Source: Candidatus Fervidifonticultor secundus
GTDB taxonomy: Bacteria > Sysuimicrobiota > Sysuimicrobiia > Sysuimicrobiales > Humicultoraceae
Assembly (NCBI GenBank): GCA_031459385.1
Contig: JAVKIP010000004.1
Span: 1 to 64,000, forward strand
Reading direction: 5' to 3'
Length of the DNA stretch: 64,000 nt
The notes under the pieces were generated by a model, which did no database searches, was not told the DNA's origin, and saw nothing but the letters and a program-made list of their open reading frames with translations. Below, piece by piece: positions 30,383 through 57,671 of this stretch (position 1 is the first letter of the stretch; every line of letters begins with the position of its first letter). The translations under genes and the position numbers were made by a program.

Positions 30383-31867
30383 CTACCCTCGCGCGGTCAG
30401 GTACTCCAGCAGGGTGCGGACGCCGAAGCCCGAGGCCCCCTTGGGCTGGATCGCCGTGGTGCCTTCCCGGTCCAGGAAGGCGACGGGCGCGATGTCGAGA
30501 TGGGCCCAGGGCACGGTGCCCGCGAACTCCCGGATGAACACCGCCCCCTTCTGCGCGCCGCCCAGGCGGCCCGCCGAGTTCTTGATGTCGGCCACGTCGC
30601 CTTTGATGGCCTCGCGGTACTCGTCGTAGAGCGGGAAGGGCACCAGGCGCTCGCCCGCGCGCGCGGCGGCAGCCACCAGGCGGTCGGCCAGGGCCTGGTC
30701 GCTGGCCATGAGCGCCGCCGCGTACGGGCCGAGCGCGATCGACGCCGAGCCGGTCAGCGTGGCCAGGTCGATGATCTCGTCCGGGGTGGTCGTGGCCAGG
30801 TGGGCCACGGCGTCGGCCAGGACCAGCCGGCCCTCGGCGTCGGTGTTGGCGATCTCCACGGTGGTGCCGGTGAGACCGCGCAGGACGTCGCCTGGCCGGT
30901 ACGCGCGGCTGCCCACTACGTTCTCCACGGCGCCGATGCCTGCGATGACCCGTACCGGCGCCTGCAGCAGGGGCAGCGCCTGCATCGTCGCCAGTACGGC
31001 GGCAGCGCCGGCCATGTCGGACTTCATCGTCGCCATGCCCTCGGCGGTCTTCAGGTTCACGCCGCCGGTGTCGAAGGTCACGCCCTTGCCGGCCAGGGCC
31101 ACAGTGCGGCGGGGCTTGGGCGGCGCGTACTCGATCTGGATGAAGCGCGGCGTGTGGGCGCTGGCGCCGCCGACGGCCAGCATGAGCTCCATGTTGTGCT
31201 TCTTGAGATCCTGCGGTCCCCACACCTGCAGCTTGAGCTTCGTGCCCTTGGCGATGCGCCGGGCCTCCGCAGCCAAGGCGTCGGGTGTCAGGACGTTGGG
31301 CGGCTCGTTGACCAGGTCGCGGGCGTAGTTCACGGCTTCGGCGACGATCTGGCCGCGCCGCCGGCCGGCCTCCACCGCCGTGGCCTCCGCGCGATTGGCG
31401 GCCAGCAGGTCGACGTGGACGTCTGCGGGGCGCTCCTTCTGGTACTTGCTGAAGCGGTAGGTGGCCAGCAGCGCCCCTTCTGTCCGCAGCGCGGCGATCG
31501 TCGCGGGCTCCCAGTCCTTGTACTGTATGGGCGGGTACGCCAGCCGGGCCAGGCGTCGCTCCTGCACCGCCCGGGCGACGGCTCCGGCAGCCAGACGGAG
31601 CCGCTCCTGGCTGAAGGCGTTGCGGTCCCCCAGGCCGACGACCGCGATGCGCGCGGCCGGCAGCCGGCCGTGCGTGTGGACGATCAGCACCTTCCCCAGG
31701 TCACCGGTGAACCGCTCCTCGGAGAGGATGCGGACGAGGTGGCCACCCAGGGCCTGGTCCAGCTTGGCGGCCAGTCCTTCCAGCCGGCCAGGGGCAGCGA
31801 ACACCCCGACCGCCAGCGCATCGCACCGGTGCGTCAGCGGATCGGCCACGAGCACGCGCACTGCCAC
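30383..31867 (-). CDS. pepA: Leucyl aminopeptidase (M17)
   Basis: 'GKGVTFDTGG', 'MKSDMAGAA', 'NTDAEGRL', 'DLATLTG', 'WAHLDIA'. Confidence 0.95.
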   Translation of the reverse strand: MAVRVLVADPLTHRCDALAVGVFAAPGRLEGLAAKLDQALGGHLVRILSEERFTGDLGKVLIVHTHGRLPAARIAVVGLGDRNAFSQERLRLAAGAVARAVQERRLARLAYPPIQYKDWEPATIAALRTEGALLATYRFSKYQKERPADVHVDLLAANRAEATAVEAGRRRGQIVAEAVNYARDLVNEPPNVLTPDALAAEARRIAKGTKLKLQVWGPQDLKKHNMELMLAVGGASAHTPRFIQIEYAPPKPRRTVALAGKGVTFDTGGVNLKTAEGMATMKSDMAGAAAVLATMQALPLLQAPVRVIAGIGAVENVVGSRAYRPGDVLRGLTGTTVEIANTDAEGRLVLADAVAHLATTTPDEIIDLATLTGSASIALGPYAAALMASDQALADRLVAAAARAGERLVPFPLYDEYREAIKGDVADIKNSAGRLGGAQKGAVFIREFAGTVPWAHLDIAPVAFLDREGTTAIQPKGASGFGVRTLLEYLTARG

Positions 31868-31916
31868 GGCATCGTCCCTCCGGTTGGTCCCCCGCGGCCG
31901 CGCGGGCGGGGAACGG

Positions 31917-32897
31917 TTACCGGCGCGCCCGGCTGGCCTCGCGCGAGGTGGGAATCTCCTGCCCCGCGCCGGCCGCCACCGCGCGCCGGTACAGCAGCTC
32001 CAGGGCCACCACGTCCTCCATGGCGATGCCCTGAGACTCGAAGAGCGTGATCTGGTCCGGCCGCGCGCGCCCCGGCGCGCGACCGGCCACGATGGCACCC
32101 AGCTCGACGACGCGCGACCACACGGGATCGCCCGCCCGCTCCGCGGCCAGGAGGTCGCCGCACTCTACCCGCGCCTGGTCCAGCGCGTCGACGGCGATGA
32201 GCTGGCTGCGCCGCACCGCCTCCGCGTCGAGCTCGGCGCGCGTCGCCGCGTTGGCACCGGCCGCGTTGATGTGGACGCCGGGGGACAGCCACGCGCCCCC
32301 GAGCACCGGATCGCGCGCCGAGGTGATCGTGACGATGACGTCCACGCCGGCGACGGCCTCCTGCGCGCTCTCGACCGCGACCGCCTCGACGCCGAGGGCG
32401 GCCACGATCTCCTCGGCGAACGCGTGACGGCGCTCGGGCGTGCGGCTGTACACCTTGACCAGCGCGACGGGCCGTACCCGCGCCACGGCCTGCACCTGGC
32501 TGCGGGCCTGCCACCCGCTCCCGATCACGCCCAGCGCCCCAGCGTCCGGGCGCGCCAGGAACTTCGTGGCCACACCGCTCGCCGCGCCCGTCCGCAGCTG
32601 CCCGAGCCGGTCGGCTTCCGTCATCAGCAGCAACTCGCCGTCGTCCAGGCGGTAGAGCAGCGCGACGAAGCGCGCGCCGCGCGGGGTCGTGGCATAGGCC
32701 TTCACGCCCGCGACACCCAGCGGCGGCACCGCAGCGTGCATGACGTGGAGCACGCCCTGCGGTGTGATCGCCCGCGTGCGCGGCTGGTTCACCGCCGCGC
32801 CTTCCCCCAGCCACCGGAAGCCCTGCTCGACCGCAGCGATCACGTCGTCTATCGCCAGCAGCCGCTCGACGTCGGCTTCCTGCAACCACCGCGCCAT
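31917..32897 (-). CDS. Ornithine cyclodeaminase/mu-crystallin family protein
   Basis: 'RTGAAS', 'IGSGWQA', 'HINAAG', 'ITLFESQGIAMED'. Confidence 0.9.
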   Translation of the reverse strand: MARWLQEADVERLLAIDDVIAAVEQGFRWLGEGAAVNQPRTRAITPQGVLHVMHAAVPPLGVAGVKAYATTPRGARFVALLYRLDDGELLLMTEADRLGQLRTGAASGVATKFLARPDAGALGVIGSGWQARSQVQAVARVRPVALVKVYSRTPERRHAFAEEIVAALGVEAVAVESAQEAVAGVDVIVTITSARDPVLGGAWLSPGVHINAAGANAATRAELDAEAVRRSQLIAVDALDQARVECGDLLAAERAGDPVWSRVVELGAIVAGRAPGRARPDQITLFESQGIAMEDVVALELLYRRAVAAGAGQEIPTSREASRARR

Positions 32898-33097
32898 GCG
32901 ATTCCCACGCCCCGCGCCGCCGATGTCGTCGCGCGAATGCCCTTCGTAGTGCTCGCCCCGGGTCCTCCGGCCGGGCCGGCGCGGTTCAATGTTCCCCAAC
33001 CTCTTGAGGGCTTCCTGTCAGGCCTGGCCGGCGGGGAACCGCACGGCTGGTCTCGAACCCCCGCCTGGGACCCCTCAATGGCGAAGGGGGAGTGCAC

Positions 33098-34282
33098 ATG
33101 ATCGAACGTCTGTTTGCGGAAATCGATGCCGCCCGAGACGCCTTGGTGGCGCTCCGGCGCGACCTGCACGCCCACCCGGAACTGGGCTTCCAGGAGGTCC
33201 GCACCAGCGGGATCGTGGCGGAACGGCTGCGCGCCGCGGGGCTGGCCGTGCGGACCGGGCTGGCCACCACCGGCGTGGCCGGGGTGCTCCGGGGCGCACG
33301 GCCCGGGCCCAGCGTCCTCGTCAGGGCCGATATCGACGCCCTCCCCATCGAGGAGGCCAACACCGTCCCCTACCGGAGCCAGCGGGCCGGGGTGATGCAC
33401 GCCTGAGGGCACGACGGGCACACCGCGGTCGCGGTGGTGGTCGCGGAACTCCTGGCCCGGCAGCGGGACCGGCTGCCGGGGGCGCTCGTCTTCGCCTTCC
33501 AGCCCGCCGAAGAGATCGTCGCCGGCGCCAGGCCCATGATCGAGGCTGGCGTGATGGACGACCCGAAGGTGGATGCCGTCGTCGGGCTGCACCTGTGGAA
33601 CGACCTGCCGGCAGGGGTCGTCGGCGTCCGCGCCGGTGCGGTCTTCGCCGCGGCCGACGAACTCGAGGTCGTGGTGGAAGGGCGTGGCGGCCACGGCGGC
33701 ATCCCGCATCAGGCCGCCGATCCGATTCTGGCCGCCGCGCACATCGTGACCGCGCTGCAGGCCATCGTCAGTCGGGAGACGCCGCCGCTGGACGCCGCGG
33801 TGGTTTCATTTGGGACGATCCAGGCGGGCACGGCCTTCAACATCATTCCCGACCGTGTGGAGCTGCGCGGCACGGTGCGGACCTTCGCGCCCGAGGTCCG
33901 CGAGCGGACGTTGCGGCGGATTCAGGAGATCGCCACCGGCGTGGCGGGAGCCCTGCGCGGGCGGGCCGAGGTCATCACGCGGCCGGGCTGTCCGGTCGTG
34001 CGCAACGACCCCGGGGTGACCGACGTCGTGCGCCGCGTGGCGGAGGAGGTCGTGGGCGCGGACCGCGTCGAGGAGATGCAGCCCACCACCGGGAGCGACG
34101 ACATGGCGTACTTCCTGGAGCGCGCGCCCGGCTGCTACTTCGTGGTCGGCTCCCACAACCGCGACCGCGGGCTGGACGGCCGACACCACACCGACCGGTT
34201 CGACTTCGACGAAGACGCGCTGACGGTGGCCGCCAAGGTACTAGGCGGCGCGGCCGTGCGGCTGCTGGAGGGCGCCGGCTAG
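33098..34282 (+). CDS. M20D amidohydrolase, probable selenoprotein (in-frame TGA at the conserved Cys)
   Basis: 'RRDLHAHPELGFQE', 'RADIDALP', 'MHA(TGA)GHDGH', 'FQPAEE', 'GGHG', 'GSDDM', 'HH..RFDFDE'; both ORF-track halves are in the same frame. Confidence 0.85.
33407..33445 (+). promoter_or_regulatory. Candidate bacterial SECIS element
   Basis: CACCGC-GGTC-GCGGTG hairpin (33421-33436), GG-starting loop 20 nt after the UGA, lower CGAC/GTCG pairing. Confidence 0.6.
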
Positions 34283-35142
34283 GCGGGCGGTCGCAGCACC
34301 TCGCCCACGAACGCGTCCAGGGCCGCCGTCGCCGGCGGCGGCGCGGCGACGAACACCCGCCACGCCCCGCGCACCCGGTCCACCGTCTCCGGCGCCAGGA
34401 GCGCTGGGAGCGGTGGCTCGGTCCAGGGAAGCGCGTCGACCTGGAGGGCGGCCTCGTCACAGTAGTCCAGGGTCGCGTCGAGGAAGTCGCGCAGGGAACG
34501 CCCGGCCAGCTCGGGTACGGGCGGAGGCCGGTCCCACCGGTCGGCGAACGCGGCAGTCAGGAGCTGGATCAGCGCCGCCAGAGTGCCCAGGGCCCGCGCG
34601 CCGTCCCAGCGCGCCTGAATGCTCTGCGCGGTCGGCCCGCTCGCCAGCGCGCTCACGTGCATCGCCTCGGCGGCGGCCGCCGCCAGCGCCAGCCTAATGG
34701 CCCCGCCCAGGCGGTCACCCGCGTCCGTCCGGCCCACCAGGTGGCGCAGGATCGCGGCGGCGGCATCGTGCGCCTTCCGCGCGTGTGCCGGCGTGGTGAT
34801 GCGCGGCATCGTCACCCGGCGGGCGAACAGGTCGCCGACCAGCACCGGCAGCCACTCCGGGTGGTCGTAGCGCGACGGGTGGCTGGCAAGGCGTCGCCGC
34901 AGGGCAGCCAGGGCGCGGGCGCCCAGCGACCCCGAGGCGTCCAGGGCGATCCGCAGGGGGAGGAACACCAGCGCGCCCCACACGATCAGCGCGAAGATCC
35001 AGCGGTCCAGTCCCCACCCGGCCAGCTGCATCGCGCCGAGGGTCAGGAAGAACCCGACAACACACCCCCCCAGCAGCCAGCGCGCCACGAGCGCACGCCT
35101 GCGCCCCTCGGCGAGCCGCGCAAGCCACAGGTGCATCGCCAT
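34279..35142 (-). CDS. Hypothetical membrane protein (two N-terminal TM helices)
   Basis: GAAGGA RBS, two hydrophobic segments, fills the gap between neighbouring genes. Confidence 0.6.
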   Translation of the reverse strand: MAMHLWLARLAEGRRRALVARWLLGGCVVGFFLTLGAMQLAGWGLDRWIFALIVWGALVFLPLRIALDASGSLGARALAALRRRLASHPSRYDHPEWLPVLVGDLFARRVTMPRITTPAHARKAHDAAAAILRHLVGRTDAGDRLGGAIRLALAAAAAEAMHVSALASGPTAQSIQARWDGARALGTLAALIQLLTAAFADRWDRPPPVPELAGRSLRDFLDATLDYCDEAALQVDALPWTEPPLPALLAPETVDRVRGAWRVFVAAPPPATAALDAFVGEVLRPPA

Positions 35143-35305
35143 CGTCCTTCCAGTTTCGCGCCAGGTGCTCACAACCCTTGCCGGCCGGCGGTGGTAGGGG
35201 CCGGCCGCGCCCCGCCACCCGGGCGCGCGGCCCGCAAGCGGGAACGCGGCGGGCGCAGGGGTCGTTCATCTCGTAGCACGGCGTCCTGGGGGCGGGGAGG
35301 CGGCC

Positions 35306-35875
35306 ATGGTGCGCGGGGTCGTCTGGGCGGCGGTGCTCGTGACGCAGGCGGTCACGCTCCTGCCGGTCGGCGTCTTCCAGATCGAGCCCGGCGCCAGCCG
35401 TGTGGAGTTCGTCATGCGCGACAACCGCGGCGGGTTTACCGGCAGCACTGACCGCGTCGAAGGCGTCGTGCACGTGCGCCAGGCCAACGGCGATGCGTTC
35501 GCTGCCACCGTGGAGGCCCGCGTGGACGCCCGGGCCCTGTCCACCGGGATCGGCCTGCGCGACGCGCAGATGCGCCGCGACTTCCTGCAGACCGACCGGT
35601 ATCCCCACATCGTGTTCCGCGGCGCCGTCACCACCCGCGACCGCCCCACAGCCCTCCGCATCGCGGCGGTGGCGCGCGGGACGCTGACGGTCCGCGACGT
35701 CACCCGCGACGTCGAGATTCCGCTGGAGGTCACCGCGCTCACCGACGAGTACCTGGCCGCCGGGGAGACCACGATCCGGCTGTCGGCCTTCGGGATTCCC
35801 ATCCCCCGCTTCCTGATCTTCGCGGCCGAGGATCCGGTGACAGTGCGGCTGCGGGTGCGCGTGCGGCGCGGGTAG
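35306..35875 (+). CDS. YceI family protein
   Basis: 'S.VEF', 'LSTGIGLRDAQM', 'YPHIVF', 'GTLTVRDVTR'. Confidence 0.85.
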   Translation: MVRGVVWAAVLVTQAVTLLPVGVFQIEPGASRVEFVMRDNRGGFTGSTDRVEGVVHVRQANGDAFAATVEARVDARALSTGIGLRDAQMRRDFLQTDRYPHIVFRGAVTTRDRPTALRIAAVARGTLTVRDVTRDVEIPLEVTALTDEYLAAGETTIRLSAFGIPIPRFLIFAAEDPVTVRLRVRVRRG

Positions 35876-35913
35876 CGCGCCGGCTCCAGGAGAGGCGTCC
35901 CGCGCGTCGAATT

Positions 35914-37287
35914 GTGGCGGGCGTGGACGCGGCTCTGGCGTACGCCCGCGAGCACCGCACGCGCTTCCTCAGCGAACTCGTGGATCTGCTGCGCATCCCC
36001 AGCGTCAGCACGGCGCCGCAGCATGTCGACGACGTGGCGCGGGCGGCGCACTGGCTGGCTGCCCACCTCGACGGGCTGGGGCTGCGCGCGCGCGTGGAGG
36101 CCGGCGGCCGGCATCCGCTGGTGCTCGCCGAATGGATGGGCGCGCCGGGTCGGCCGACGGTGCTGTGCTACGGGCACTTCGACGTGCAGCCGCCCGACCC
36201 GGTGGACCTCTGGCGGAGCCCGCCCTTCGACCCGGTGATCGACGGCGACGTCGTCTACGCCCGCGGGGCTTCCGACGACAAGGGCCAGCTCTTCATCCAC
36301 CTGAAGGCGCTGGAGGCCATCCTGCGCACGACCGGGAGGCTTCCGGTGAACCTGAAGGTCCTCCTGGAGGGTGAAGAGGAGATCGGCAGCCCCACGCTGG
36401 CGACGTACATACCGCGCCGGCGCCGGCGGCTGGCCTGCGATGCCGCGCTCGTCAGCGACGGGTCGCTGTTCGCGCCCGATCTCCCCACGCTGGTCACCGG
36501 CCTGCGAGGTCTGCTGTACACCGAGGTCGACGTGCAGGGCGCCCGGCGGGACCTCCACTCGGGCCAGTTCGGCGGCGCCGCACCCAACGCCCTGGGCGCC
36601 GCCGCCCAGATCGTCGCGGCCCTGAAGGACCGCCGCGGGCGCGTCCGCGTGCCGGGCTTCTACACCCGCGTGCGCGAGCCGTCTCCTGCCGAACGCGACG
36701 CCTGGGCCCGGTTGCCGTTCGACGAGGCGGCGTTTCTCGCGATGCTGGGCACCGACGCGGCGCCCGGTGAGGCGGGGGTGCCGGTGCTCGAGCGGCTGTG
36801 GACGCGGCCGACGCTCGATGTGCACGGCATCGCCGGCGGCTTCACGGGCGAGGGGATGAAGACCGTGATTCCCGCCCGCGCCGTCGCGAAGGTGTCCATG
36901 CGCCTGGTGCCCGACCAGGAGCCGGCGCGCATCTTCCGGCGGTTCGCGCGGTTCGTGCAGCGTCAGGCGCCGCCGGGTGTGCGGGTTGAGGTGCGCCACC
37001 TGGCGTCGACGCCGCCGGTCGTGACCTCGCCGGAAGCCGCGCCGGTCCGGGCTGCGGGAAGGGCCCTGGAGGAGACCTTCGGGCGACCGCCGGTCTACGT
37101 CCGCGAGGGCGGGAGTATCCCGGTCGTGGCCGCGTTCGTGCGGGCGCTGCGGGTCCCCGCGGTCCTGATGGGCTTCGGCCTCCCCGACGACAACCTCCAC
37201 GCGCCCAACGAGAAGTTCTCGCTGGCGAACTTCGGCCGGGGCATCGAGGCCACGATTCGTTTCTTCTACCACTATGGGAACGGGTGA
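35914..37287 (+). CDS. M20 family dipeptidase
   Basis: 'YGHFDVQP', 'ARGASDDKG', 'EGEEEIGS', 'DLHSG', 'GGSIP', 'HAPNE'. Confidence 0.92.
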   Translation: MAGVDAALAYAREHRTRFLSELVDLLRIPSVSTAPQHVDDVARAAHWLAAHLDGLGLRARVEAGGRHPLVLAEWMGAPGRPTVLCYGHFDVQPPDPVDLWRSPPFDPVIDGDVVYARGASDDKGQLFIHLKALEAILRTTGRLPVNLKVLLEGEEEIGSPTLATYIPRRRRRLACDAALVSDGSLFAPDLPTLVTGLRGLLYTEVDVQGARRDLHSGQFGGAAPNALGAAAQIVAALKDRRGRVRVPGFYTRVREPSPAERDAWARLPFDEAAFLAMLGTDAAPGEAGVPVLERLWTRPTLDVHGIAGGFTGEGMKTVIPARAVAKVSMRLVPDQEPARIFRRFARFVQRQAPPGVRVEVRHLASTPPVVTSPEAAPVRAAGRALEETFGRPPVYVREGGSIPVVAAFVRALRVPAVLMGFGLPDDNLHAPNEKFSLANFGRGIEATIRFFYHYGNG

Positions 37288-38560
37288 CCGCGCCCCGGCA
37301 CCGGGGAGCGGGGGCGTCGGGGCGCCCGCGCGGCCGCTGGCGATCGCCCTGGGCGTCATCGGCGTCGTGCTGCTGCTGCTGGCCGCGACCGGGCTTCCTG
37401 CCGTGCCCCGCACCAGCTGGATCGTCCTGGGGCTGGCGTCGGGAGTCGCGCCGCTGCTCGGCGTGATGCTGCCGTCGGGGATCCTGGTGACGCCGCTGGG
37501 CGGGGTTGCGCTCGGCGCGCTCTTCCTGTACGGCTGGCCGGCCGCGCTCCTGCTGCTCGTCCCCGGGATGGTCGTGCAGTACCTTCGCCGCAGGCGGCCG
37601 CCGATCCGGCTGGGCGCCGAGCTGGGCCAGCACGCGCTGGCGCTCGGAGGCGCCGGAGTCGTCACGCCCGCGGCGGGCCCCGACGGCCTGAGCGCGTGGA
37701 CCGTGGCGCTGGGCGGCGCGGTCTACACCGTGATCTGGGCGGCCGTCGAGATGGGGACCCGGCGGGCCACGGCGGAGGATCGCGCGGTCGTGCGGCCGCC
37801 CGTGGGCGCAGACGCGCTGCTCGCGCCTGCGGCCATGGTGCCTGGCGGGGTGGTCATAGCCGCCCTGGCGCTGGCGGCCGGTTCGGGAGCGGCGGGGGTC
37901 GCGTTGGGCAGCGTGCTCTGGCTGCTGGCGGGCGCCGCTGTCTGGGGCGCGGCGGCGGCACGGGCGGCGCAGCGCAGGATCGCCGACCTCACGCGCCGGC
38001 TGGACGACGCCATGGTGGCAGTGGAACGCCTGGCCGTGGCCGATCCGCTGACGGGCCTCTACAACCGCCGGCAGTTCCACCTGAGGCTGGAGGAAGAGTT
38101 CCGGCGGGAGGCGCGCGCCAACACGCCCTTCAGCGTGCTCCTGCTGGACGTCGTCGGCTTCCGGCAGATCAACGAGACGCACGGGCACCTGGTCGGCGAC
38201 GCGGTGTTGCAGCAGCTCGCCCGGCTGTTGGACGGCGCCGTGCGGCCGGGAGACCTGCTGTTCCGCACGGGTGGCGACGACTTCGCGGCGCTCCTGCCGC
38301 GCACCGATCGCCCGGCGGCCGAAGCCGCGCTGGCACGCCTCACGGCGCTGGCGGCCGCCACGCCCCTGCCCGCCGGCGCGCATCGCGTCCTCGTCCGCCT
38401 CCACGGCGGCGTGGCCACCGCGCCGGAGGCCGGCACCGACCCCGACGCCCTGATCGCGGCCGCCACGGCCGCGCTGGAGCGCGCGCGCGCGCGCTGCGGC
38501 GGGGCCAGCCGCCCGCAGCGAACGCTGCCTCGCCTGGACCCTGACCGGCCGACGCGGTGA
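37274..38560 (+). CDS. Membrane-bound GGDEF-domain protein
   Basis: Multi-TM N-terminus; 'DPLTGLYNRR', 'INETHGHLVGD', 'RPGD' I-site, 'GGDDF'. Confidence 0.88.
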   Translation: MGTGDRAPAPGSGGVGAPARPLAIALGVIGVVLLLLAATGLPAVPRTSWIVLGLASGVAPLLGVMLPSGILVTPLGGVALGALFLYGWPAALLLLVPGMVVQYLRRRRPPIRLGAELGQHALALGGAGVVTPAAGPDGLSAWTVALGGAVYTVIWAAVEMGTRRATAEDRAVVRPPVGADALLAPAAMVPGGVVIAALALAAGSGAAGVALGSVLWLLAGAAVWGAAAARAAQRRIADLTRRLDDAMVAVERLAVADPLTGLYNRRQFHLRLEEEFRREARANTPFSVLLLDVVGFRQINETHGHLVGDAVLQQLARLLDGAVRPGDLLFRTGGDDFAALLPRTDRPAAEAALARLTALAAATPLPAGAHRVLVRLHGGVATAPEAGTDPDALIAAATAALERARARCGGASRPQRTLPRLDPDRPTR

Positions 38561-39226: not shown

Positions 39227-39320
39227 AAATGAAGAAGAGGAGTAGCGGGACCGGGGCCCGCGTGCCGCACGCTGCTGCGGCGGGCAGGAGATGGGCCTGC
39301 GGACCTCGAGGGGGGATGAA

Positions 39321-40880
39321 ATGGTGCGCACCCTGCCGATAGCGGTACTGCTGATCGTCGTCGGTGCTGGCAGCTGGTCGGCCGGCGCAGCCCCTGCCGT
39401 GAGCCCGCAGCGGGGCGGGATCCTGATCGTGGGGCAGGGGACCGATGCCACGACGCTGGACGGGCACCTCTACACCGACGCGCCCACGGCGACCATCATG
39501 GAGCACATGGTGGAGACCCTGTTCGAGCTGACCCCCGAGGGCAAGGTGCAGCCGCGCCTGGCCACAGCCTTCCAGGTGTCCCCGGACGGGCGGACGTTCA
39601 CCATCCGCCTGCGGCCGGGCGTACGGTTCCACGACGGCACCGCGCTCGACGCCGAGGCCGTGAAGTTCAACCTCGACCGCATCCTCGATCCGGCGACGCG
39701 CGCGCCCTGGCGTTTCCTCATCAGCCGCGTCCAGCGGGTGGAGGCCGTCGACCCTACGACGGTGCGCCTGACGACCGACGCGCCGTTTGCGCCGCTGCTG
39801 GCGCACCTGACCCACAGCGGCACCGGCATTCAGAGCCCCGCGGCGATCCGACGCCTGGGCGCCGACTACGCGCGCCAGCCGGTCGGCACCGGGCCGTTCC
39901 GGTTCCGGGAATGGGTGCGCGGTGACCGCGTGGTCGTCGTCCGCAACGACGACTACTGGGGCGAGCGGGCGCTGCTGGACGAGGTGCAGTTCCGCGTCAT
40001 CCCCGACGACGGCGCGCGCCTGGCCGCGCTGGAGGCCGGGTCGCTGCACGTGGCGGTGCGCGTGCCGCCCCGCGAGATCGAGCGGCTGCGGGGCAGCCGT
40101 GACGTCCGCGTCTCCATCGACACGAGCCTGCGGACGATCTACGTGGCGTTCAACGTCTCGCGACCACCGTTCAACGACCGGCGGACGCGCCTGGCGCTGA
40201 ACTACGCTGTCAACAAGGACGCCATCGTCAGGTCGGCGCTGGCCGGCACAGCCCGGGTCTCCGACGCGCCCATCGCGCCCAATGTGCAGGGCTACTCCAA
40301 GATCATGAGCTACCCGTGGGACCTGGAGCGGGCCGAGACGCTGCTGCGCGAAGCGGGCTACAGCCGCGAGCGCCCGCTGCGCGCCGTCTTCCACCACCCG
40401 ACGGGGCGGTACATCCGCGATGCTGAGATCGCGGCCAGCATCCAGGGCTTGGCGCGGCGGGCGGGCATCGAGCTCGAGCTGCGGACGCTCGAGTTCGGCG
40501 CGTACATCGCACTCACCGCCCGGCCGCGCGAGCAGAACGACATCCAGATGTACATGCTGGGCTGGGGCACCGTGACCGGCGACGCGGACTACGGGCTTTA
40601 CGCGTTGTTCCACACGTCCCAGTTTCCGCCCGTGGGCTTCAACCGCGGCTTCTACAGCAACCCACGCGTCGATGCGCTGCTCGATCGCGGCCGGACCACG
40701 GTGGACCAGGGCGAGCGCAACAAGATCTACGCTGAGGCCATGAAGCTCATCATGGAGGACGCCGCGTGGATCTTCCTGCACAGCGAGTCCCAAGTGACAG
40801 GCCTGCGAGCCGCCGTGCAAGACCTGGTGATCCATCCAGCCGAGCGCGTCATCGCCACCAGGGCGTGGCTGCGCCGGTAG
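39321..40880 (+). CDS. Peptide/glutathione ABC substrate-binding protein (family 5)
   Basis: Signal peptide; 'LRPGVRFHDG', 'PVGTGPF', 'NDDYWG'. Confidence 0.9.
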   Translation: MVRTLPIAVLLIVVGAGSWSAGAAPAVSPQRGGILIVGQGTDATTLDGHLYTDAPTATIMEHMVETLFELTPEGKVQPRLATAFQVSPDGRTFTIRLRPGVRFHDGTALDAEAVKFNLDRILDPATRAPWRFLISRVQRVEAVDPTTVRLTTDAPFAPLLAHLTHSGTGIQSPAAIRRLGADYARQPVGTGPFRFREWVRGDRVVVVRNDDYWGERALLDEVQFRVIPDDGARLAALEAGSLHVAVRVPPREIERLRGSRDVRVSIDTSLRTIYVAFNVSRPPFNDRRTRLALNYAVNKDAIVRSALAGTARVSDAPIAPNVQGYSKIMSYPWDLERAETLLREAGYSRERPLRAVFHHPTGRYIRDAEIAASIQGLARRAGIELELRTLEFGAYIALTARPREQNDIQMYMLGWGTVTGDADYGLYALFHTSQFPPVGFNRGFYSNPRVDALLDRGRTTVDQGERNKIYAEAMKLIMEDAAWIFLHSESQVTGLRAAVQDLVIHPAERVIATRAWLRR

Positions 40881-40900
40881 GGGGACCGCAGAGGTAGAGG

Positions 40901-40938
40901 CGCCGGGGGAGGGGGCCACCAGGCTCGCCCCCCCGGCG
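40901..40938 (+). terminator. Intercistronic stem-loop after the SBP gene
   Basis: CGCCGGGGG...CCCCCGGCG. Confidence 0.5.
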
Positions 40939-40947
40939 TGCGATGCC

Positions 40948-41868
40948 GTGTGGCGTTACATCGTCAAGCGGCTGCTCCTGGCCTTCCCGGTCGTCTTCGG
41001 TGTGGCGTTCGTCGTCTTCGCGATGGTGCGGGTCCTTCCGGGGGACCCGGCGCAGATCATCGCCGGCGAGGCCGCGACCCGGGAGTTCGTCGAAGCTGTC
41101 CGGCGAGACCTCGGGCTCGACCGGCCGCTCCTCGTGCAGTTCGCCACGTTCACCGCCAGCTTGCTGCGGGGCGATTTGGGCCGCTCGGTGCGCTCGCGGG
41201 CACCGGTGACCGACGAGCTCTGGGCTCGCATCCCGAACACCGTGACCCTGACGGTGGCCGGGCTGGCGGTCGCCGTGACCGTGGGCGTCTCTGCGGGGAT
41301 TCTCTCTGCGGTGCGCCCCTACTCGCTGATCGACACCCTGGTCATGGTCGCGGCGCTCATCGGGCTGTCGATGCCCGTGTTCTGGTCGGGGCTGATGATG
41401 ATCCTGGTGTTCGCCGTCTGGCTGGGCTGGCTGCCGGCGGTGGGCACCGGGACGCCGCTGCACCTCGTGCTCCCCGCCGTCACCCTGGGGCTGGCGACGG
41501 CGGCCATCATCGCCCGCATGACACGCTCGAGCATGTTGGAGGTGCTCCGCTCTGACTACGTGCGGACGGCCCGCGCCAAAGGTTTGGCCGAACGGGTCGT
41601 CGTCAACCGGCACGCGTTTCGCAATGCGCTCATCCCCGTCATCACCGTCGTCGGCTTGCAGATGGGTGGGCTGCTGTCCGGCGCGGTCCTGACCGAGAGC
41701 GTGTTTGCCTGGCCGGGGATCGGCCGGCTGCTGGTGGAGGGCATTCTAGCCCGCGACTACCCGGTGGTCCAGGGGGCGGTGCTGCTGGTGGCACTGGCGT
41801 TCGTCCTGGTCAACCTGCTGGTCGACCTGCTGTACGCCGTCGTCGACCCGCGCATTCACTATGGCTGA
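40948..41868 (+). CDS. Peptide ABC permease (DppB-like)
   Basis: 'PGDPA', 'GDLGRS', 'DYVRTARAKGL', 'DPRI'. Confidence 0.92.
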   Translation: MWRYIVKRLLLAFPVVFGVAFVVFAMVRVLPGDPAQIIAGEAATREFVEAVRRDLGLDRPLLVQFATFTASLLRGDLGRSVRSRAPVTDELWARIPNTVTLTVAGLAVAVTVGVSAGILSAVRPYSLIDTLVMVAALIGLSMPVFWSGLMMILVFAVWLGWLPAVGTGTPLHLVLPAVTLGLATAAIIARMTRSSMLEVLRSDYVRTARAKGLAERVVVNRHAFRNALIPVITVVGLQMGGLLSGAVLTESVFAWPGIGRLLVEGILARDYPVVQGAVLLVALAFVLVNLLVDLLYAVVDPRIHYG

Positions 41869-42787
41869 GCCCCGGCTTGCGCCGGTGCCGGCGGCGCGCA
41901 CGCGCCGTCCGGCACCGGGCCGGTCGCCCGCGGACCCCCGCGGCGCGCGCCCGCGGGCCCGGACGCTCTGGCGCCAGTTTGGACGCCACCGGGCCGGGCT
42001 CGTGGGCCTGGCGACGCTGACGGCGTTCCTGATCGCCGGGCTGTTCGCGCCCTGGCTGGCGCCCCGCGATCCCTACGAGATCGCGCTGGAGGCGAGCCTA
42101 CGCGGGCCCGACCGCGACTTCTGGCTCGGCCGCGACGAGCTGGGACGTGACCTCCTGAGCCGGGTGATCTACGGTGCCCGGCTGTCGCTGGTGATCGGGG
42201 TCATCGCCGTGGCGATCGGCGTCGGCTTCGGCGTGCCCATCGGCGCGATCTCGGGCTACTTCGGGGGCTGGCTGGATCTGCTGGTCCAGCGCGCCATCGA
42301 CGTGCTGCTGGCGTTTCCCGGCATTCTGCTGGCCATTGTGCTCGTGGCGATCCTGGGTGTGGGGCTCCCTCAGGTCATGGTGGCCGTTGGCATCGTGTCG
42401 ATCCCGGTGTACGCGCGCCTGGTGCGCGGCCAGGTGTTGACCATGCGGAGCCAGGAGTTCGTGGACGCGGCGCGGGCCCTGGGGGCTCCGACCGGGCGCA
42501 TCCTCTGGCGGCACATTCTGCCCAACACCGTGGCGGTTATCATCGTGCAGTCGACACTGCAGTTCGCCTCGGCGATCCTGTCGGCCGCGGCGCTGGGCTT
42601 TCTCGGGCTGGGGGCACAACCGCCTGCAGCGGAGTGGGGCACGATGCTCTCCAGCGCGCGGCAGTACATCAGGCTAGCGCCGCACAGCGTGACCTTCCCG
42701 GGCCTGGCCATCATGCTGACGGTGCTGGGGTTCAACCTGGTGGGTGACGCGGTCCGGGACGCCCTGGATCCCCGGCTCCGCCTCTGA
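41861..42787 (+). CDS. Peptide ABC permease (DppC-like)
   Basis: 'LG.DELGRD', 'EFVDAARALGA', 'HILPN', 'GDAVRDALDP'. Confidence 0.92.
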   Translation: MAEPRLAPVPAARTRRPAPGRSPADPRGARPRARTLWRQFGRHRAGLVGLATLTAFLIAGLFAPWLAPRDPYEIALEASLRGPDRDFWLGRDELGRDLLSRVIYGARLSLVIGVIAVAIGVGFGVPIGAISGYFGGWLDLLVQRAIDVLLAFPGILLAIVLVAILGVGLPQVMVAVGIVSIPVYARLVRGQVLTMRSQEFVDAARALGAPTGRILWRHILPNTVAVIIVQSTLQFASAILSAAALGFLGLGAQPPAAEWGTMLSSARQYIRLAPHSVTFPGLAIMLTVLGFNLVGDAVRDALDPRLRL

Positions 42788-56304: not shown

Positions 56305-57671
56305 TGCGGCGCCGTCCGCTGCGCGCCGTCCTGCTGCTGGTCGCGCTGGCCCTGGTGGCGGCGCCGGTGGGGCGGCCGCGCGCGCATGCGGCCGATGCTG
56401 GGCTCGTGCTCGAGGCGTTGCGCATCTTGCGCGCCAGGTACGTCGATTCCGTCGAGCCCACACCCCTGCTGAACGGCGCGCTGGCCGGCGTGCGGGCGGC
56501 GCTGTCGGCGGCGGGGGTCGCCGCCGAGGTGCCGGAGCTCGCGTCCCCCGGCGAGGCGGCCGACGCCGCGTTCCGGGCCCGCTTCGAGGCGGCCGCGGCG
56601 GCCGCCAGCGGTCGCCTCACCCGGACCGCGTTGACCTACGCGGCGATTCGCGGCATGACGGCCACGCTGCGCGACTCGCACACCGGGTTCCTCACCCCCG
56701 AGGCCAACCGCGAGCGCCAGCTGCGCCAGCGGGGTCAGGCTGGCTTCACCGGCGCGGGCATCGTGCTGCTTGAGCGCGACGGCCGGTTCTACGTGCGCGA
56801 CGTGATCCCGGACGGCCCGGCGCTGCGCGCTGGCGTGCAGCGGCTCGACCGCATCGCGCGCATCGACGGGATCTCCACGCTCGGATTGCAGGTGGAGCAG
56901 GTCGCGGGGTCGATTCGCGGGCCCGCGGGCACGGCTGTGACCCTGGTGCTCGACCGGCCGGGCCGCGCCGACCCCGTCACGGTCAGCCTGGTGCGCGCGC
57001 CCATCCAGGTGCCGGCGGTGTTCGAGGCCCGCGTGCTCCCCGGCGGCGTCGGCTACCTCCACTTCTACCAGTTCACCGCGCGCTCGGGGCGGGAGTTCCG
57101 GGCCGCGCTGGACCGCCTGCTGGCCAGCGGCGCGCGCGCGCTCGTGCTGGACGTGCGCGCCAACGTCGGCGGCTACGTCCACGAGCTGTCGGCGGTGCTG
57201 AGCGCGCTGCTACCCGCAGGCCGGCCGATTCTCCGGGAGACGAGCCGGGGCGGCCGCACGCGGACCGTGTACACTGCGGGCCGGCCCGCGCTGCCACCGG
57301 GGCTGCCCGTCGTCGTGCTCGTCGACGACGCCACGGCATCCGCTGCCGAACTCCTCGCTGCCGCGCTCCGCGAGCACCTGCGGGCACGAGTGGTGGGCAC
57401 CCGGACCAGCGGCGCCGTGGAGGCCAGCATCGTCGTCGACCTCTCCGACGGCTCCGCGCTTAGCGTGACGGTCCAGCGGCTGTCCACGGGACTGGGCTAC
57501 CGTCTGGAGGGCGTGGGCGTGCAGCCCGATCTCTCGATCGCCCTGACAGGCGCTGACCTCGACCGCGGCCAGGACACGCAGTTGCTGCGCGCCCTGGCCG
57601 TGGCGCGGGAGGGCGCGCGGCCCGCTGCGCAGCCGCGGTCTGCCGTGGGCGGGAGCGGGCGCACGCCATGA
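56304..57671 (+). CDS. S41 family peptidase with PDZ domain (paralog 1)
   Basis: Signal peptide; 'DSHT', PDZ, 'LDVRANVGG', 'TASAAE'. Confidence 0.88.
   Translation: MRRRPLRAVLLLVALALVAAPVGRPRAHAADAGLVLEALRILRARYVDSVEPTPLLNGALAGVRAALSAAGVAAEVPELASPGEAADAAFRARFEAAAAAASGRLTRTALTYAAIRGMTATLRDSHTGFLTPEANRERQLRQRGQAGFTGAGIVLLERDGRFYVRDVIPDGPALRAGVQRLDRIARIDGISTLGLQVEQVAGSIRGPAGTAVTLVLDRPGRADPVTVSLVRAPIQVPAVFEARVLPGGVGYLHFYQFTARSGREFRAALDRLLASGARALVLDVRANVGGYVHELSAVLSALLPAGRPILRETSRGGRTRTVYTAGRPALPPGLPVVVLVDDATASAAELLAAALREHLRARVVGTRTSGAVEASIVVDLSDGSALSVTVQRLSTGLGYRLEGVGVQPDLSIALTGADLDRGQDTQLLRALAVAREGARPAAQPRSAVGGSGRTP

Follow-up and report, generated by a model that had tools for sequence, protein, structure and literature searches.

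A predicted selenocysteine codon at the metal-site cysteine position of an M20D amidohydrolase gene in Candidatus Fervidifonticultor secundus and other bacteria

We analysed a stretch of 64,000 nucleotides from Candidatus Fervidifonticultor secundus (GenBank assembly GCA_031459385.1, contig JAVKIP010000004.1, positions 1 to 64,000 of the forward strand), referred to below as the window. It contains a gene for an M20D amidohydrolase that is interrupted by a single in-frame UGA. From comparisons across genomes, this UGA is very probably a genuine, conserved selenocysteine (Sec) codon, followed by a clade-specific hairpin that resembles a selenocysteine insertion sequence (SECIS); we put the probability of this reading at about 0.9. 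The features of the gene are as follows.

33098..34282, + strand: coding sequence of the M20D amidohydrolase, 394 codons plus a TAG stop (34280-34282), with ATG at 33098, read through the UGA
33404..33406, + strand: in-frame UGA, predicted to be read as selenocysteine 103, at the metal-ligand cysteine (Cys) position of MHACGHD
33421..33436, + strand: SECIS-like hairpin CACCGC-GGUC-GCGGUG, with a 6-bp stem from the 15th nucleotide after the UGA and the apical loop GGUC
33434..34282, + strand: artefactual 282-residue open reading frame (ORF) reported by automatic gene callers, which stop at the UGA
33084..33092, + strand: putative Shine-Dalgarno-like purine-rich stretch AAGGGGGAG, found by inspection 5 nucleotides before the ATG at 33098

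The DNA around the UGA reads GCC TGA GGG CAC GAC GGG CAC, with the TGA at 33404-33406. The ORF list holds two pieces, 33092-33406 and 33434-34282, which share one frame, and translation, with U for TGA, yields a protein of 394 residues that includes GVMHAUGHDGH. A sequence-only reading of the window, made earlier by a model, had described one frame broken by a single TGA, a 394-residue read-through product with its other motifs intact, and a hairpin CACCGC-GGTC-GCGGTG whose loop starts with G 20 nucleotides after the UGA. The sequence, the ORF list and the translation agree with it on all of these points, and the hairpin is located at 33421-33436, its loop beginning with G after 20 intervening nucleotides.

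The read-through product scores 373.5 bits against TIGR01891, above the family cut-off of 153.75, and both the M20 catalytic domain (Peptidase_M20, PF01546, 147 bits, cut-off 24.6) and the dimerisation domain (M20_dimer, PF07687, 50.8 bits, cut-off 21) are found by Pfam. Among solved structures its best matches are 1YSJ (E 2.7e-87), 1XMB and 4EWT. The motifs QPAEE (residues 135-139), GLHLW (163-167) and GRHHTD (361-366) are intact; all of the M20D metal-site motifs are thus there, save that the Cys has become a UGA codon, the assignment of metal binding being taken from the relatives. On these matches the gene is predicted to encode a complete M20D metallo-amidohydrolase, of the type of the N-acyl-amino-acid amidohydrolases / carboxypeptidases. 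Scores against the equivalog models for CpsA (NF040868, 389.9 bits against a cut-off of 500) and the DoeB2 deacetylase (NF038260, 298 bits against 550) are below threshold, and no specific substrate can be assigned. No selenoprotein-named NCBIfam model matched the read-through product. YgeY owes its link with selenium to its gene neighbours and is not known to be a selenoprotein. The YgeY model (NF009555), which describes an M20-superfamily hydrolase and carries a name tied to selenium metabolism, gives a weak partial match to the window protein (24.8 bits, cut-off 321).

In the public protein collection the window's product is present only as a 282-residue fragment (P0017), and the products of other Sec-holders are likewise fragments, the whole set being of 282-295 residues (P0017, P0045, P0053, P0066, P0100 and P0101). 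The Cys relatives are there at full length under the name "amidohydrolase".

In each of the five solved M20D chains compared (4EWT, 1YSJ, 3IO1, 1XMB and 6SLF), the MHACGHD Cys is the residue aligned with position 103. In CsAga this Cys is described as a bridge between two zinc ions, in the available text of PMC11511702. The exchange C137S in the same motif of the peach ILR1 protein (PpILR1) abolished hydrolysis, according to the part of PMC8149794 available, which also cites evidence that the corresponding Cys in Brassica ILL2 coordinates metal. The metal-ligand role that the sequence-only reading gave for this Cys is thus borne out for the relatives.

We searched for orthologues in 41 relatives, then in all 34 genomes of the window's family, and then in all 94 genomes of its order (a set identical to that of the phylum). 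An orthologue was found in 18 genomes, all of the family; outside the family, none was found among the 94 order and phylum genomes at E 1e-40. Of the 18 orthologues, 5, from three genera, have TGA as codon 103, and the remaining 13 have TGC or TGT. The window's genome is one of the TGA-holders; two more are its congeners, at 88% identity, and the last two, at 71-72%, are single species of two further genera. TAG stops encountered in this search are ordinary gene terminators. A divergently oriented gene of the ornithine cyclodeaminase/mu-crystallin family is kept beside all 18 genes, and tblastn matches to the M17 aminopeptidase gene next to it lie at the edges of the 18 loci, weakly in L023 and L024. 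Given this common synteny in 18 of 18 loci, the genes are true orthologues. In a protein tree the Sec forms do not make up one clade; three changes are needed, at least two of them forced by well-supported branches. Sec and Cys forms thus appear to have been exchanged repeatedly, with at least two to three switches inside one bacterial family.

TGA at the same codon also recurs beyond the family. A DNA pattern for M-H-A-TGA-G-H-D-x-H, run over contigs of one genome per species, gave 40 loci, where roughly one would be expected by chance; the flanking residues of the pattern are fixed, which makes 40 a lower bound. All 40 loci encode M20D homologues of the window's protein (P0001), with 32-88% identity, E values of 1e-46 or better and a frame open through the TGA. 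Eighteen are labelled Dehalococcoidia/Chloroflexota, nine Planctomycetota, five Methylomirabilota and two "uncultured bacterium", with one each labelled Poribacteria, Bacteroidia, Clostridia, Deltaproteobacteria, Armatimonadetes and Candidatus Fervidifonticultor. Three loci (L044, L050 and L066) match, over the 57 bases compared, genomes of the window's family from the orthologue search, and have the cyclodeaminase-like neighbour. The other 37 come from other lineages, and none of them has this neighbour.

The hairpin of the window is identical in all five Sec orthologues of the family. For counts across lineages we used 40 distinct Sec sequences. Two come from the window's genome and a congener; the other 38 are pattern loci, from which the duplicates L062 and L066 had been removed. 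Of the 40, 36 form a perfect hairpin in either of two fixed registers: 14 have a 6-bp stem and a 4-nucleotide loop from the 15th nucleotide after the UGA, and 22 have a 7-bp stem and a 7-nucleotide loop from the 17th. At other positions in the same genes, these two shapes have a background frequency of 0.39% and 0.16%. The loop is often GGUCU, GGUC or AGUCU. Two loci, L070 (labelled Clostridia, 32% identity) and L046 (labelled Bacteroidia, 38%), have TGA at the motif position and no perfect hairpin in either register; they may be independent acquisitions of Sec in other M20D subfamilies, with a different SECIS geometry. A 10-bp alternative to the window hairpin, CCGCGGUCGC-GGUG-GUGGUCGCGG, is present in the window's genome only and is not retained in the congeners, and we did not adopt it.

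The hairpin registers follow protein clades, and base pairs were therefore counted by clade. In two protein clades (n = 23), 94% of cells are paired, a value that none of 500 shuffles reached (shuffled mean 76%; slid controls 23-66%), and five of the eight stem pairs show changes on both sides. The set of the window's family plus a Dehalococcoidia clade (n = 13) has 100% of cells paired, again reached by none of 500 shuffles (shuffled mean 89%), and two of its six stem pairs are compensatory in the same register. Cys genes served as a control in the order of one Dehalococcoidia Sec-holder, where 14 of 16 genomes have a match and one locus is without a motif match. There the complete stem (7 of 7 pairs) is found in all seven TGA genes and in none of the six Cys genes, which score 3-6 of 7.

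The coding sequence is constrained on both sides of the UGA. Among Sec-holders the ratio of nonsynonymous to synonymous substitution rates (dN/dS) is 0.14-0.27 over the 288-291 codons after it, indicating that the downstream part is translated and constrained, and 0.08-0.25 over the 102 codons before it (Cys-Cys pairs: 0.15-0.18). Over the first 11 codons past the UGA, 27 of 31 codons at conserved residues are identical between three Sec lineages, compared with a fraction of 0.53 in the rest of the gene. The corresponding fractions between Cys-Cys pairs are 0.54 and 0.50. This codon identity 3' of the UGA points to a constraint at the RNA level that is specific to the Sec forms.

The host assembly is a 3.3-Mb metagenome-assembled genome in 59 contigs (97.6% complete, 5.5% estimated contamination, 72% G+C), and selA, selB, selC and selD are all found in it. 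The tRNA-Sec encoded by selC scores 64.5 bits and has the anticodon TCA; selA (548.9 bits) and selB (367.6 bits) adjoin it on contig C12. The selD gene (388.2 bits) has an in-frame TGA of its own in a VACAG*ASK context. UGA is not reassigned throughout the genome, as TGA is the commonest ordinary stop (633 of 1123 long ORFs with high G+C at third codon positions, GC3) and tRNA-Sec is the only one of 56 host tRNAs with a UCA anticodon. In the family, selA is found in 30 of 34 genomes and tRNA-Sec in 29 of 34, counts that take in the unpublished genomes G010 and G019, and all five TGA-holding genomes have both.

A crude scan of the host genome for TGA codons flanked by a high-GC3 frame gave 114 candidates. 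By eye, several have selenoprotein-like contexts: TUPHC, CEYU, FTUPYC, AAAGU and WAGU, by motif putatively those of thioredoxin-fold, CMD/AhpD-like, Prx-like, OsmC-like and ArsM-like proteins, respectively. In-frame TGA sites outside the window, Sec-SelD included, are C8:25730+, C9:69909-, C36:4787+, C45:16942+, C56:126001+ and C1:104038-104961-. Hairpins after five other candidate UGAs start 9-19 nucleotides downstream and have the loops AGGCU, AGGCU, CGGCG, UGGAG and CGUGU; the M20D hairpin, 14 nucleotides after its UGA and with the loop GGUC, agrees in spacing with these five candidate selenoprotein genes. A strong hairpin also lies about 25 nucleotides downstream of the in-frame TGA of selD. 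Two further aragorn calls in the host genome, both "tRNA-???", have irregular anticodon loops of four bases ("cagc") and two bases ("gc") (56690-56781 and c71823-71916).

Several observations weigh against the Sec reading. Folded alone, the hairpin region has z = 0.38, and 134 of 200 shuffled sequences are at least as stable, in a genome of 72% G+C; since there is no folding significance in the single sequence, that of the hairpin comes only from comparison across genomes. An Rfam scan of 33350-33520 with E up to 10 found no family; its best matches, a snoRNA and a Mycobacterium sRNA (E 3.1 and 5.7), are at chance level and were rejected. Nothing in the hairpin corresponds to the bulged U of the E. 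coli fdhF element (PMC8659212, accessible portion). Four of the 40 Sec genes are without a perfect hairpin in either register, and many of the 40 pattern loci are closely related, so that the counts exceed the number of independent events. Within the window's family the stem does not discriminate, as all six pairs are kept in 8 of the 13 Cys orthologues. Contigs of three hot-spring metagenome DNA runs span the site with no difference at 33404-33406, but these runs belong to one study that may be the source of the assembly, and so are not independent of it. A contig from an RNA library covers 33000-33201, which is short of the UGA and does not prove transcription. The case for Sec insertion at residue 103 is, as a whole, computational and at the level of sequence.

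The stems in Cys orthologues arise in part because the peptide TA(V/I)AV, encoded in G+C-rich codons, yields a palindrome. They could be relics of changes from Sec to Cys, or a palindrome already in place could have eased the switch from Cys to Sec. The Cys orthologues with the 6-bp hairpin are L025, L027-L029, L034, L035, L037 and L038, and their loops are GAUC, CAUC, AGUC or GGUC. In the family only the loop tracks Sec: GGUC on an intact stem is found in five of five Sec genes and in 1 of 13 Cys genes.

The observed gene structure could also be caused by a nonsense mutation from TGC to TGA that inactivated the amidohydrolase and left the downstream frame to decay. Such a pseudogene would take a single base change, close Cys orthologues exist (13 of 18), and gene callers give only the 282-residue fragment. 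We consider it very unlikely, given that the same codon is TGA in five species of three genera and also at 37 loci of other lineages, that the 288-291 downstream codons contain no other stop or frameshift and have a dN/dS of 0.14-0.27, and that a covarying hairpin follows the TGA. An error of sequencing or assembly at 33406, for which the metagenomic origin of the genome and its 5.5% estimated contamination could be cited, is hardly credible: the separately built contigs of the three runs agree, and the TGA recurs in independently assembled genomes of other species. The gene could instead make two separate products, a 102-residue N-terminal peptide and a 282-residue protein starting at GTG 33434, which assemble or act apart. 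Both ORFs exist and the public gene calls give the second, but the protein would then lack residues 104-112 (GHDGHTAVA), which lie in the metal-site motif and are encoded between the UGA and GTG 33434. Synonymous conservation is highest in the codons of these residues. Inspection of the sequence before 33434 gave no Shine-Dalgarno-like stretch, and the other phyla keep the frame despite different downstream sequences; two products are accordingly highly improbable.

A full-length enzyme without selenium would result if the UGA were read through by other means, either by near-cognate insertion of Trp, Cys or Arg or through a local recoding signal. The evidence on the inserted residue is of sequence only, and the hairpin could in principle stimulate read-through alone. 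Against this, TGA replaces Cys specifically, in the manner of a classical Sec/Cys pair; the window's genome has a complete Sec system, and selA and tRNA-Sec accompany the TGA in all five genomes of the family that hold it. Among the 56 tRNAs, a UCA anticodon was seen in tRNA-Sec and in no other. The spacing of the hairpin and its G-rich loop are like those of the other candidate selenoprotein genes of the host and of the E. coli model, as far as the available text of PMC8659212 describes it, and a non-thiol residue at the equivalent site abolished activity in a relative (C137S, in the accessible part of PMC8149794). Read-through of this kind therefore seems unlikely. All of the computational checks that the sequence-only reading suggested came out on the side of Sec.

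If the UGA is a Sec codon, the hairpin starting 14 nucleotides after it would recruit SelB with Sec-tRNA(Sec), and the UGA at 33404-33406 would be decoded as selenocysteine 103 rather than ending the protein. By analogy with the relatives, whose MHACGHD Cys is a ligand of the two catalytic metal ions or a bridge between them and is needed for hydrolysis, we infer that Sec103 would replace this conserved metal-site Cys, placing a selenolate as a ligand of the dinuclear metal centre of a non-redox hydrolase. The advantage of a selenolate over Cys might, speculatively, lie in metal preference or in resistance to irreversible oxidation.

The Cys-type M20D enzymes of known structure (Bacillus subtilis YxeP, 1YSJ; Arabidopsis thaliana ILL2, 1XMB/2Q43; Staphylococcus aureus, 4EWT; Corynebacterium striatum CsAga, 6SLF; and the AbgB-like 3IO1) belong to the same fold family and match the window protein over nearly their full length, with E values from 2.7e-87 to 2.4e-45. 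The MHACGHD, QPAEE and GxH motifs are common to both. Unlike these enzymes, the window gene has UGA at position 103 and a SECIS-like hairpin. Sec as a direct ligand of a metal would be a feature shared with FdhA (Mo/W-Se; PMC13188914, in the part of the text available) and with [NiFeSe] hydrogenase. These two are redox enzymes with redox-active cofactors, whereas the window protein would have a dinuclear Lewis-acid hydrolase site and is not homologous to them. The E. coli fdhF element is described in the accessible text of PMC8659212 as a stem-loop of 17 nucleotides, 11 nucleotides from the UGA, with G23 and U24 in the loop and a bulged U17. The window hairpin likewise lies within the coding region, shortly after the UGA, and its apical loop contains G and U. 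It differs in that the stem begins 14 nucleotides after the UGA, has only 6 bp and lacks a bulged U in its 5' arm, and in that the Sec-M20D genes use two hairpin registers in different clades.

The sequence-only reading had doubted that M20D is a standard selenoprotein family, and the searchable literature gives the same picture. No M20 protein, amidohydrolase, peptidase, hydrolase, aminoacylase or carboxypeptidase is mentioned in the main texts of a 2026 review of the prokaryotic selenoproteome (PMC13188914), BSepDB (PMC13326102), deep-Sep (PMC12013277) and the GOS survey (PMC2398784); a listing in the supplements of BSepDB or of the review is possible. The same holds for the main texts of a 2022 review (PMC9312934), the Olavius symbiont paper (PMC1976440) and a 2022 preprint on eight new families. 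A full-text search for selenoprotein together with M20, amidohydrolase, hippurate hydrolase or peptidase gave nothing relevant. PMC5658510, which mentions selenoprotein, M20 and amidohydrolase, is in its available text about the absence of selenium metabolism and about hippuricase in Campylobacter avium, and was set aside. Most selenoprotein families are oxidoreductases with a redox role for Sec, and direct Sec-ligand interactions have been confirmed for few, such as FdhA, FrhA and FrhD (PMC13188914, available portion). The M20D family and UGA recoding are each known; their combination, with Sec at the metal site of a hydrolase, appears to be new to the searchable literature. We lean towards the view that Sec replaces a Cys bridging two metal ions in this protein, which would make it a non-redox metallo-amidohydrolase with selenium as a metal ligand, and one of a selenoprotein family that the searchable published lists do not contain.

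The genes upstream of the M20D gene are as follows.

31920..33017, - strand: gene of the ornithine cyclodeaminase/mu-crystallin family, the divergent neighbour (Pfam PF02423, E 1.8e-67), not part of the recoding
30386..32164, - strand: M17 leucyl-aminopeptidase-family gene beside the cyclodeaminase-like gene (Pfam PF00883, E 1.4e-109)

The cyclodeaminase-like and aminopeptidase neighbours suggest that the M20D enzyme may act in the catabolism of amino acids or peptides. Two long high-GC3 ORFs on the - strand, at 34282-35265 (328 residues) and 35269-37665 (799 residues), have no Pfam match at E 1e-5; the former is conserved beside the M20D gene in most loci of the family. A peptide/nickel-type ATP-binding cassette (ABC) transporter, with an SBP_bac_5 binding protein and two permeases, is encoded at 39246-42787 (+ strand), 5 kb downstream of the M20D gene.

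Because public gene calls stop at 282-295 residues, the enzyme is annotated as truncated in several uncultured lineages, of Planctomycetota, Dehalococcoidia, Methylomirabilota and the window's hot-spring lineage. The occurrence of Sec forms under at least eight phylum- or class-level labels, together with the repeated switches, suggests that a selenolate ligand may bring an advantage open to selection, be it in metal choice, in Lewis-acid tuning or in protection of the ligand from irreversible oxidation. The Sec and Cys forms of the window's family (71-88% identity, same synteny) would make up a natural enzyme pair for the effect of a selenolate on metal affinity, selectivity and oxidative robustness. 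If Sec does ligate the metal centre of this hydrolase, it would extend selenium biology to Lewis-acid catalysis.

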